In this document: one piece after another, positions 2,873 through 5,384 of the stretch | How the letters are laid out: each line of letters starts with the position of its first letter | Position numbering within the stretch: the first letter of the stretch is position 1 | From: Pseudomonadota bacterium | Lineage (GTDB): Bacteria; Pseudomonadota; Alphaproteobacteria; Rhizobiales; JACESI01 | Reading direction: 5' to 3' | DNA length: 15,760 bases | Assembly (NCBI GenBank): GCA_039180865.1 | Contig: JBCDCZ010000085.1 | Span: 1-15,760 of the forward strand | Notes under the pieces: model-generated | Told to the model about the DNA's origin: nothing | The model's input: only the letters and a program-made list of their open reading frames with translations | The model's database searches: none | Position numbers and translations under genes: made by a program

Positions 2873-2888
2873 TGTCATGTAAGTGACA
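2873..2888. promoter_or_regulatory. Dyad-symmetric putative operator TGTCA-N6-TGACA upstream of paralog A
   Basis: TGTCATGTAAGTGACA centred about 118 bp upstream of the start codon at 2762. A near-identical site sits at the same distance upstream of paralog B. Confidence 0.45.
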
Positions 2889-3032
2889 TATGATGCCAAG
2901 AAGGAGACGTTTGTTTGTAGAGGTTTACCTCAATCCCGCGCGTATCAGCGCTTCTCTATCGGGAATATGACTATGATTGAGCGATGGACCACAGCGTTTT
3001 TCCTTTCCGAGAGCTTTTGGGGCGCACTAGAA

Positions 3033-3060
3033 GTAAAAGAGCACCGGGAGATCCGATGCT
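3033..3060 (-). terminator. Intrinsic terminator of paralog B (copy 2 of the shared repeat)
   Basis: Same hairpin agcatcggatctcccggtgct on the minus strand, followed by cttttac (a weaker U-tract). Confidence 0.5.
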
Positions 3061-3113
3061 CTTTCATTGCATTCGTTCATGACGTTGGCAGGGCGCGCTA
3101 TGCGCCAGCCCGA

Positions 3114-4070
3114 TTACTCATGCGCCAGCTCGTTCATGATTTGATTATGAAGCATCTGGTCTTTCAAGCTCTTCGCGATGCTATCCATAGAATAGTCCGT
3201 TGGATCGCCAAGCGGTGGAAGGTTGCCGGCGCCCTGAAGATCATCAGCATTCTGTAGGTCCATTTGAATGGCCTCGAGATATTCCGGATCTTTGATTGCG
3301 CGGGTCAATGAATCGCTTTTCATCAGTTTAACAATGTCGGTGCGGCATTGTCCAAGTGCGGAAATCATATCGCGTTTTGCTTCCGTAAGCTGCTGGTCGT
3401 CTCCATTGCTTTTGGCTTCCTGGTAGTTCGCCAGGGCTTGCTTCGCGAACATGCGGGTTTCGTAGGAAACGTTCACTTCAAACTTCACGTTCTGGTCGGG
3501 GTTCGTCACATAGTCGAGCATCGTCTTTTCGAGCTGATCCATTGGAAACTCATTCAGACGATTGTCCGGAAAGTTATCCGGCGCTTTCTGGAACTCTGTC
3601 ATGGGTATGTTGTTAAATTTGGCCACGAAGCATGTGTTCTCTATCGCAAATTCTTTCGCCGTGTGTTTCAGCAGAGCCAATCGTGCCGTTGGCATGCTGT
3701 CAGTTATCGTGATCGGGTCTTTGCCCAAGTTGTTGACAGTTACAGAGAACTCTTTTTCGTACTTGATCGTGTCGATCAGAGTCTTGATGTCGCTGTCGGA
3801 TGCCATTGAGGACCAACCACCCGTCTTTGTGGCAGTGCTGACGTTGCTGGCTTTCCAGCTTTCAAATGTCTTCAAACCTTTATCGCCGAACTTGTCGCTG
3901 ACGTAATCCTTCAGGCTTTCAAGCTGCTTGGATTGCTCGCTGGTTGCCTGGCCTGTCATGTTGAGCCAAAGCGATTTGAGGCCGCCGACCCCTTGGGGCG
4001 GGCCCTTCTGCTGATTGTCGTTGATTTGGGGCTGGGGGGTTACCGTTCCGACTGCGCCGAGTTCAGACAT
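3114..4070 (-). CDS. Hypothetical protein, member B of the tandem paralog array (closest to member A)
   Basis: 318 aa ORF with GGAG SD. By eye about two-thirds identical to member A over its full length, with a nearly identical N-terminal 100 aa (KGPPQGVGGLKSLWLNMTGQATSEQSKQLESLKDYV...). Confidence 0.8.
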   Translation of the reverse strand: MSELGAVGTVTPQPQINDNQQKGPPQGVGGLKSLWLNMTGQATSEQSKQLESLKDYVSDKFGDKGLKTFESWKASNVSTATKTGGWSSMASDSDIKTLIDTIKYEKEFSVTVNNLGKDPITITDSMPTARLALLKHTAKEFAIENTCFVAKFNNIPMTEFQKAPDNFPDNRLNEFPMDQLEKTMLDYVTNPDQNVKFEVNVSYETRMFAKQALANYQEAKSNGDDQQLTEAKRDMISALGQCRTDIVKLMKSDSLTRAIKDPEYLEAIQMDLQNADDLQGAGNLPPLGDPTDYSMDSIAKSLKDQMLHNQIMNELAHE

Positions 4071-4180
4071 TATCGTGCTCCATGAATTTTACCGGGACGG
4101 CGCGTTACCTCGCGCGTATTCGTTGCCCCGTTTGTTGCGCCAATGTTTGCCTGAAGGTAACGCAGGCCGAAAAGGCGAAG

Positions 4181-4196
4181 TGTCATGAACATGACA
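4181..4196. promoter_or_regulatory. Dyad-symmetric putative operator TGTCA-N6-TGACA upstream of paralog B
   Basis: Perfect 16-bp palindrome TGTCATGAACATGACA centred about 118 bp upstream of the start at 4070. Confidence 0.45.
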
Positions 4197-4304
4197 TATG
4201 GGATCAGTTTTTTTTTAAGAGACCGGTCAGCCGCGGATTTTCATGGAGCTCGATACCCGCCTTGGCGCGGCGGATAACCGCCACGCCGTCTCGTTGTTTG
4301 GGTG

Positions 4305-5276
4305 CTAGATCAGGCCGCCATCGCGCAGGGCGTCTTTCAGAACATGGTACCGGCTGAGGTCCTCGATACCCTGATCAATTTGGTTGACATCAAGTGTGGT
4401 CGGGTCGCCGAATGCAGGAACATTGCCGATGTTATCCGGATCACCGAAGTTGCGGAGATCCTGATCGATTGCCTCAAAGAAGAGCGGGCCCTGAACCGGA
4501 TCACTCCTGAGGCGATGCAACGTATCCGAGTTGACCAAATTCTTGATCTCAATGCGGCAGTCATCAAGAGCGTCAATGAGGTTGCGTTTGGCGGCGTTGA
4601 TTTGCGCCTGATTGCCACCGGCCAAAGCCTGGTCGAAAGCGTCATAAGCCAATTGTGCGTCATGACGGGTATCGTATGGCAAATTGAGTGCGAAGGCGGG
4701 ATCATTGCCGTTTGCCGTAGAAACATAATCCATCATCATTTGCCTTAGGGTGTTGTCCGGGAACTCATTCAAACGGGCATCCGGGAAATTGCCTGGTGCG
4801 GCCTGGAATTCCTGCAAAGGCATCGAATTGAATTTCGAAAGGAAGGTGACGTTTTGCTCACTGAATTCGCTCATCACGTGCTTCAAAAGGATCAACCGTG
4901 CCTTCGGCATACTGCTCACAATGTCTACACTCGATTGAGACAACTCCTGGACGCGCTCATTGGTTTCCAAGTCGCTGATCAATCCTCTGATCTCGCTGGT
5001 TGAGAGAACCGTCGACCAATGCCCACCGTCCCTCGAAGCGGTCTTCACATGGTCTGCCTGCCAGTTGTCCAGGAATTTCAAGCCTTCATAGCCGAACCGA
5101 TTGTCGACATAATCCCGCAAGGAAGAGAGCTGTTTCGACTGGGTGCTGGTTGCCTGCCCGGTCATGTTCAACCAAACCGATTTCAGTGTGCCGACACCCT
5201 TCGGAGGGGTTGCGGGTGCGGTGTCAGCGGTTTGTACCTGGCGTGCTGCGCTAGTGATCGATGCGATTTCAGACAT
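4305..5276 (-). CDS. Hypothetical protein, member C (most divergent) of the tandem paralog array
   Basis: The track ORF 4305..5282 begins at a TTG. ATG at 5274-5276 lies 6 nt after GGAGA SD, giving N-terminus MSEIAS..., which matches the MSELGA/MAELGA starts of members B and A. It shares PPKGVGTLKSVWLNMTGQATSTQSKQLSSLRDYV, MPKARLILLKH, RLNEFP and DYV blocks. Confidence 0.75.
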   Translation of the reverse strand: MSEIASITSAARQVQTADTAPATPPKGVGTLKSVWLNMTGQATSTQSKQLSSLRDYVDNRFGYEGLKFLDNWQADHVKTASRDGGHWSTVLSTSEIRGLISDLETNERVQELSQSSVDIVSSMPKARLILLKHVMSEFSEQNVTFLSKFNSMPLQEFQAAPGNFPDARLNEFPDNTLRQMMMDYVSTANGNDPAFALNLPYDTRHDAQLAYDAFDQALAGGNQAQINAAKRNLIDALDDCRIEIKNLVNSDTLHRLRSDPVQGPLFFEAIDQDLRNFGDPDNIGNVPAFGDPTTLDVNQIDQGIEDLSRYHVLKDALRDGGLI

Positions 5277-5368
5277 TTTCAATCTCCATTCTTGTGCGGC
5301 GGTGAGCGGCCTCTGGTGAGACAGCAGCGGCGTTGGAATGGAGAATGCTTGTTGGGGGCGATCCTGTC

Positions 5369-5384
5369 TGTGAACGCGTTCACA
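5369..5384. promoter_or_regulatory. CRP-consensus-like dyad TGTGA-N6-TCACA upstream of paralog C
   Basis: Perfect palindrome TGTGAACGCGTTCACA about 95 bp upstream of the start at 5276. Confidence 0.45.

Follow-up and report, generated by a model that had tools for sequence, protein, structure and literature searches.

Predicted CRP/FNR-type operator dyads upstream of three tandem paralogs of a rare orphan gene family in a Pseudomonadota genome

The classical core consensus of the Escherichia coli regulator CRP is TGTGA-N6-TCACA, and CRP reads the base pair at position 4 of each half-site with residue Glu181. Here, we describe three inverted repeats of this general layout in a 15,760-bp stretch of DNA, hereafter the window, which is the complete contig of a metagenome-assembled genome (MAG) labelled "Pseudomonadota bacterium" (locus tags AAGE61_*). 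Each repeat lies upstream of one of three tandem paralogs (par1, par2 and par3) that encode orphan proteins. Their best available reading is as predicted operators of CRP/FNR-family regulators, which we consider somewhat probable on the sequence evidence; that they are the predicted operator of some symmetric regulator, of whatever family, is likely.

Closely related sites have been described in several systems. The consensus of Mycobacterium tuberculosis Cmr obtained by systematic evolution of ligands by exponential enrichment, TGTCANNNNNN(C/T)GACA, was described as nearly identical to the motif of Rhodospirillum rubrum CooA (PMC4705688). Cmr has an autoregulatory site about 150 nt upstream of a start codon, and the glutamate that corresponds to CRP Glu181 is a proline in this protein; the Cmr and CRP motifs of M. 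tuberculosis are very similar, and the sites detected for the two proteins by chromatin immunoprecipitation sequencing overlap little (PMC4705688). The consensus of Desulfovibrio CooA is TGTCGGCNNGCCGACA (PMC545781), and the box of Sinorhizobium meliloti Clr is TGTTN8AACA, with the relaxed form HGTYHCNNNNGRWACA (PMC5498481).

Sequence, placement and conservation of the dyads

The three 16-mers lie exactly where a first-pass annotation of this DNA had placed them (Table 1). All are perfect 5-6-5 dyads, with 5-bp inverted half-sites around a 6-bp spacer and two-fold symmetry over 16 bp. Dyads 1 and 2 differ from dyad 3 at half-site position 4, a base change that the annotation had described as central, and, as it had also recognized, dyad 3 carries the classical CRP sequence. 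Dyad 3 is in addition a perfect palindrome over its 16 bp, and the arms of dyad 2 extend to 7 bp (TGTCATG/CATGACA). The annotation had further described the dyads as standing at a fixed distance from their genes, which is true of par1 and par2 and fails for par3. Its value of 94 bp for par3 had been measured to a TTG at 5282; from the homologous start, the ATG at 5276, the distance is 100.5 bp. We set the par3 start at this ATG because a GGAG placed 7 nt before the ATG and an opening M(S/A)E..., which reads MSE... in par3, are common to all three genes.

The dyads are real and non-random. The pattern TGTNA-N6-TNACA has three matches in the window against 0.10 expected, a number reached in none of 200 shuffles, and all three fall upstream of the paralogs, one per gene. 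By dinucleotide shuffling, the chance of at least one match in the upstream region is 0.0027 for par1, 0.0013 for par2 and 0.0001 for par3. Allowing one mismatch to TGTSA-N6-TSACA yielded no extra site in the window, and about 84 kb of non-redundant background DNA from other organisms contained one match only, which is non-palindromic. This match (TGTCAAAACCATAACA, L016 7113-7128), near a distant relative of the paralogs and 322 bp from the start of a CesT gene, was treated as a chance occurrence. Perfect 5-6-5 palindromes of any sequence number 30 in the window and are mostly intragenic; the unusual feature is the common TGT...ACA frame and its placement, not palindromy itself.

The upstream regions of par1 and par2 align from dyad to ATG at 66% identity. 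Because these promoters are duplicates, dyads 1 and 2 represent one ancestral site that has been kept and not two independent observations. The par3 promoter, by comparison, is barely alignable to the other two save for a CAAnCATT motif and the ribosome-binding site. With its other half-site type and its position 18 bp nearer the ATG, dyad 3 is effectively an independent occurrence and statistically the strongest of the three.

The only other locus of this family with upstream DNA is L001, a 4,150-bp contig of MAG GCA_039181265.1, which contains a par3 ortholog and a par2-like gene without par1. Its dyads, TGTGAACGCGTTCACA and TGTCATTTTCATGACA, are centred 100.5 and 118.5 bp from the respective ATGs, the same distances as in the window. 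When par1, par2 and the L001 copy are compared, the dyad ranks first in conservation among the 16-bp segments of the upstream region (13 of 16 positions invariant, against 38% overall), with 10 of 10 arm positions and three of six spacer positions invariant. This conservation of the arms over the spacer is the pattern expected of a dimer-binding site. In the upstream comparison, identity is 91% from dyad to ATG and 74% in the diverged, indel-containing sequence 5' of the dyad, a drop that marks the dyad as the upstream edge of the constrained promoter. The annotation's appeal to conservation through duplication and divergence is borne out to the extent that the sites have been kept; as evidence it is modest, since the 13 of 16 dyad positions common to par1 and par2 compare with a promoter-block background of 66%. 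Conservation upstream of orthologs likewise holds in L001, in a second MAG that is too close to be informative. Taken together, conservation is suggestive and not decisive.

Proposed regulation and rival explanations

The paralogs are arranged in tandem on the minus strand between a Band_7/SPFH gene and a glutathionylspermidine-synthase-family gene. A terminator hairpin downstream of par2 splits the par2 and par1 transcription units, and a GC-rich hairpin stands between par3 and the par2 promoter. The genes therefore constitute three separate transcription units, each of which needs its own promoter. We propose that dimeric helix-turn-helix regulators of the CRP/FNR superfamily would bind the dyads as operators, and that each dyad bounds, on the upstream side, the promoter of a paralog that is transcribed on its own. 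The CRP/FNR-type architecture assigned by the first-pass annotation finds support in the 5-6-5 geometry, the placement at the upstream edge, the retention of arms over spacer and the match to experimentally defined motifs. A literature search for the exact strings of the TGTCA-N6-TGACA variants returned no match.

The mode of regulation would likely be activation and not repression, because conservation extends upstream as far as the dyad and not beyond it, and because par2 and par3 lack a good -35 element. Activator-dependent promoters often have no good -35 hexamer, and the poor -35 of par2 and par3 would fit such dependence; only par1 has a good -35 (TTGACG) at a spacing of 17 bp from its -10-like motif. 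Relative to the -10-like motif common to all copies, the dyad centres are predicted from sequence to lie near -53.5 for par1 and par2 and near -39.5 for par3. CRP typically acts from -41.5 at class II promoters and from -61.5, -71.5 and so on at class I promoters, and the position predicted for par3 is close to the former. Alternatively, the promoter-proximal arm of each dyad (ATGACA or TTCACA, both 5/6 matches to TTGACA) would overlap the -35, followed after 18 bp by weak -10-like hexamers, and the predicted dyad centres then fall near -38.5 in all three.

Several observations weigh against assigning the dyads to the CRP/FNR family. Sites with the 5-6-5 TGT...ACA layout are not confined to CRP/FNR proteins, and no CRP/FNR-family gene is present within the 15.7-kb contig. 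The -53.5 predicted for par1 and par2 is non-canonical for CRP of either class, and the 14-bp offset between the inferred centres does not correspond to whole helical turns. Only about two of the sites are independent, and by a binomial estimate a 20-bp segment with 17 matches is not rare over about 100 such segments at 66% identity. The conservation of the sites in L001 says little because the two MAGs are 89-95% identical at the nucleotide level in the flanking genes, Band_7 and par3. Finally, the distant relatives of the family in other organisms have no such dyad.

In an alternative that we consider unlikely, the dyads are operators of a dimeric regulator outside the CRP/FNR family (e.g. 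GntR-, TetR-, Xre-, IclR- or PpsR-like), perhaps a repressor. Rarity and conservation argue only for a symmetric protein-binding site and for no given family, and the lack of a CRP gene in the window and the atypical -53.5 are both consistent with such a regulator. The half-sites are nevertheless published CRP-family consensus motifs base for base, and we know of no other family with the exact 5-6-5 motif. The PpsR/CrtJ operator is TGT-N12-ACA and usually occurs in pairs; since the spacing here is TGT-N10-ACA, with a single site per promoter, this candidate was rejected.

It is less likely still that the palindromes have no operator function, which would require that the par1 and par2 sites were copied by duplication, that the right arm was kept as a -35-like hexamer, and that the symmetry and the par3 palindrome are coincidental. 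The similarity of the right arms to TTGACA, with their weak -10-like hexamers, would accord with this explanation, as would the 30 generic palindromes of the window and the modest excess of conservation over the par1/par2 background. The left arm, however, has no -35 role and is as invariant as the right, and par3, despite its barely alignable promoter, has a perfect 16-bp palindrome in the same TGT...ACA frame at a chance of about 1e-4. Overlap of a half-site with the -35 is, moreover, a feature of class II CRP/FNR promoters and so is compatible with CRP/FNR-type operators.

Two further explanations are highly improbable. In the Pho box, two copies of the 7-bp unit CTGTCAT stand in direct orientation, in line with the gene, with a period of 11 bp. 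Dyads 1 and 2, which read CTGTCAT-N4-GTGACAT and GTGTCAT-N4-ATGACAT on the plus strand, would resemble PhoB sites in the 6-7/7 match of the first unit and in the 11-bp period of the 7-bp units, but the second unit is inverted and not direct, the good unit is on the strand opposite the genes, dyad 3 has no similarity at all, and the symmetry points to a two-fold symmetric dimer. Hairpins in RNA or DNA (an attenuator, a processing site or a terminator remnant) could draw on 5-6-bp stems and on a 9-bp long-range complement in the par2 leader (GCGTTACCT...AGGTAACGC), but the stems are weak (-3.8 to -5.1 kcal/mol, z-scores -0.7 to -2.9) and no U tract comes after them, the conserved block starts at the dyad, which places it probably upstream of the transcript, the consensus leader fold has no covariation support (RNAalifold, term +0.67), and an Rfam search of the leaders returned no match. 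The two halves of the 9-bp inverted repeat lie at 4102-4110 and 4155-4163, 44 bp apart, and overlap a local GCGCG-N6-CGCGC hairpin (4100-4115); the repeat is partly kept in par1 and L001, also without covariation support.

Other promoter elements considered for these regions were rejected: for a sigma-54 promoter, the GG/GC spacing is wrong and par1 has no match, a promoter of the HrpL/extracytoplasmic function (ECF) type, GGAACC-N16-CCAC, has a weak match in par1 only that is unconserved in par2 and par3, and a CtrA box was considered and dropped.

If the dyads are CRP/FNR-type operators, the question arises whether they serve one regulator or two. Dyads 1 and 2 and the par2-like site of L001 have C at half-site position 4, and dyad 3 and its ortholog have G; no single half-site consensus covers all three dyads, and C versus G at this position is what separates the Cmr/CooA-type from the CRP-type consensus. 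Given this split, and the small overlap of Cmr and CRP sites in M. tuberculosis, where the two motif classes specify largely distinct regulons, the proposal of the first-pass annotation that one regulator controls the whole family is doubtful and constitutes the weakest part of that interpretation. Under the mechanism proposed here, par1 and par2 would be controlled from a CooA/Cmr-type site and par3 from a classical CRP-type site, and either one regulator accepts C or G at position 4 or two CRP/FNR paralogs provide two inputs. We consider these two possibilities about equally likely. A better description of the arrangement would be a single CooA/Cmr-type site, retained in both duplicates, together with one classical CRP-type site.

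The paralog family and its locus

Pfam and NCBIfam searches with par1, par2 and par3 returned zero family matches, and the family is extremely rare. A word-indexed search of 5.8 billion proteins found four 90% clusters, and an exhaustive profile search of 1.8 billion proteins found twelve 50% representatives, three of them close. Among GTDB genomes, only the second MAG was a further source of the family, and neither two Joint Genome Institute metagenome scans nor a tblastn search of plasmids gave a match. A profile search of the PDB with the paralogs returned nothing significant, and the AlphaFold model of par2 is poor (mean predicted local distance difference test 56), all-helical, and low-confidence and unstructured over the N-terminal 45 residues.

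Sequence comparison indicates that the family is a fast-diverging orphan, hypervariable between close relatives. The par2 orthologs (window 3090-4304 versus L001 1126-2322) are 77% identical in nucleotide and 74% in amino acid sequence, against 89-95% nucleotide identity for the neighbouring Band_7 and par3. The MAG of the window also has a fourth paralog, P0015 (AAGE61_06355), with an allele, P0005, which is frameshifted; in sample SRR22824324 the two are only 60% identical in amino acid sequence, and their contigs (L004 and L009) have identical starts and ends of ~30 nt, as in an assembly-graph bubble. Both alleles were read on Logan contigs of 1.1 kb that begin 116 bp ahead of the gene; by alignment with par2, they fall about 20 bp short of the expected place of a dyad, which for P0015 would lie about 20-36 bp upstream of AAAGTAACGTCGG. 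The contig of the second MAG is otherwise collinear but lacks the par1 gene and its promoter (about 1.3 kb, 1786-3089). The divergence between par1 and par2 exceeds that between par2 and its ortholog; the duplication therefore predates the split of the two MAGs, with a probable loss of par1 in the other lineage.

The N-terminal ~100 residues of the paralogs (GVGxLKxxWLxxxGQA...QLxxLK..V..FG..GL) are shared with a loose family, to which they align by hhalign with 98.7% probability (E 4e-16); two relatives, P0006 and P0007, were recovered at E 1.5e-8 and 3.8e-8 in the search of 1.8 billion proteins. Both relatives are encoded directly downstream of genes for CesT-family chaperones of the type III secretion system (T3SS; Pfam E 2.5e-18 and 2.6e-19), and one, in L016, lies at most 8 kb from T3SS needle genes (YscF-type PF09392, PF08988), a YscD-type gene, an AraC regulator and an ECF-like sigma factor. 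The paralogs are thus homologous to proteins encoded beside T3SS chaperone and apparatus genes, and may be candidate T3SS substrates. No CesT or T3SS gene is present in the window, and we regard the role as secreted substrates as a lead and not as a result.

Upstream of both distant family members in GCA_020966255.1 stands a GGAACC and, after it, a common TTTGCCTG (L016 7343-7375; L014 7932-7965), an arrangement that resembles HrpL/ECF-type promoters; the ECF-like sigma gene near the T3SS cluster (L016 11223-11804) is only 28% identical to the ECF sigma factor of the window. The GGAACC-type motif is not conserved upstream of the window paralogs.

Combining the T3SS connection with the position-4 split gives a bolder hypothesis, which we consider unlikely as a whole: that this is a fast-diversifying family of T3SS substrates in which, after duplication, a single-base switch of the half-site (TGTCA<->TGTGA) brought one copy out of the control of a CooA/Cmr-type sensor and under that of a classical cyclic-nucleotide CRP. 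If true, the switch would represent regulatory subfunctionalisation at base resolution, with the family deployed under two signals.

The other genes of the window encode MCP, Cache, SLT_2 and GGACT proteins, 2Fe-2S/molybdopterin oxidoreductase subunits, a MOSC protein and the ECF sigma factor; the pattern and one-mismatch scans of the window placed a dyad upstream of none of these. An open reading frame with HAMP and MCP-signalling domains (9276-10976, minus strand) and a 153-residue sCache_2 open reading frame (11055-11516, minus strand) lie 78 bp apart on the same strand and could be two genes or a single chemoreceptor interrupted by a frameshift or by an error of assembly. A tRNA-Arg(TCT) gene (128-201, plus strand) is located about 350 bp upstream of Band_7. 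In relatives whose GSP_synth is 60-70% identical, unrelated genes come after the DUF1190-GSP_synth pair, and G+C is 0.48-0.53 over the paralogs versus about 0.55 in the flanks; the paralog cluster may be a lineage-specific insertion.

Table 1. Features of the window and of related loci. Positions are those of the window unless another locus is named.
Feature	Position	Strand	Remarks
Dyad 1, TGTCA-N6-TGACA, TGTCATGTAAGTGACA	2873-2888		Upstream of par1; centre 118.5 bp from ATG 2762
Dyad 2, TGTCA-N6-TGACA, TGTCATGAACATGACA	4181-4196		Upstream of par2; centre 118.5 bp from ATG 4070
Dyad 3, TGTGA-N6-TCACA, TGTGAACGCGTTCACA	5369-5384		Upstream of par3; centre 100.5 bp from ATG 5276
par1	1812-2762	-	316 aa; orphan protein
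par2	3114-4070	-	318 aa; 64% aa identity to par1
par3	4305-5276	-	323 aa; 44% aa identity to par1 and par2
GGAG ribosome-binding site of par1	2770-2773	-	7 nt before ATG
GGAG of par2	4078-4081	-	Arrangement as in par1
GGAG of par3	5284-5287	-	Arrangement as in par1
Sigma-70-like promoter candidate of par1, TTGACG-17-AACAAT	2834-2862	-	Consensus match only
-10-like AACAAT, par1	2834-2839	-	Consensus match only
-10-like AACATT, par2	4142-4147	-	Consensus match only
-10-like AGCATT, par3	5344-5349	-	Consensus match only
Terminator hairpin after par2	3034-3066	-	14-bp stem, -20.7 kcal/mol, then UUUUACUU
GC-rich hairpin after par3	4264-4287	-	10-bp stem, about -23 kcal/mol, without U tract
Band_7/SPFH gene	553-1695	+	Flank of paralog cluster
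Glutathionylspermidine-synthase-family gene	5502-6740	-	Other flank of paralog cluster
Family relatives at CesT/T3SS loci	L008 256-1649; L016 7435-9512, 15709-17512		

Significance and comparison with described systems

The dyads are a new instance of a textbook type of regulatory element; the operator type is well known and not surprising in itself, and the importance of the regulatory finding is local and not general. If bound as predicted, the dyads would nonetheless be the first experimental handle on the inducing signal of an orphan family so far found in only two marine-type MAGs, as well as a compact case in which one base per half-site sets apart the regulatory inputs of paralogs, and they are worth a bench test. 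The T3SS link and the allelic hypervariability of the family are the more unusual points, and both go beyond the original operator finding.

Among described systems, the FNR/FixK/FnrL anaerobox, TTGAT-N4-ATCAA, is similar to the dyads in overall length and belongs to the same superfamily, but its half-site is TTGAT, compared with TGTSA here. The FixK/FnrL relatives named as candidates by the first-pass annotation are disfavoured, in that TTGA-N6-TCAA occurs in none of the three sites. A Clr-like regulator, its other suggestion, is also a poor fit. S. meliloti Clr is an alphaproteobacterial, cAMP/cGMP-responsive, CRP-like activator whose targets include genes of unknown function (PMC5498481), and its box has the same outer TGT-N10-ACA frame; the inner positions differ, with dyads 1, 2 and 3 mismatching the relaxed HGTYHCNNNNGRWACA at 3, 4 and 5 of 12 specified positions by a count made by hand.

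The sites of classical CRP and of Vfr, GlxR and Clp resemble dyad 3, which is the core consensus itself and perfectly symmetric, and whose downstream promoter has a poor -35. Dyad 3 is flanked by CA...GA and lacks the A/T-rich borders found in the 22-bp E. coli consensus, and neither a crp nor an adenylate cyclase gene is in view in the window.

For dyads 1 and 2, the closest parallels are M. tuberculosis Cmr (Rv1675c) and CooA. Unlike in those systems, neither heme nor carbon monoxide metabolism genes nor a cmr or cooA homolog were seen in the window, where the 2Fe-2S/molybdopterin-binding oxidoreductase genes (11872-14523) have no dyad upstream; furthermore, the inner part of the Desulfovibrio CooA sites is GC-rich (TGTCGGCNNGCCGACA), whereas that of the present sites is AT-rich (TGTCAT..ATGACA). 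In common with Cmr and CooA, the sites are 16-bp 5-6-5 dyads, the 118 bp that separate them from the start codon are comparable to the distance of about 150 nt for the Cmr autoregulatory site, and dyads 1 and 2, together with TGTCATTTTCATGACA of L001, fit the Cmr consensus exactly.

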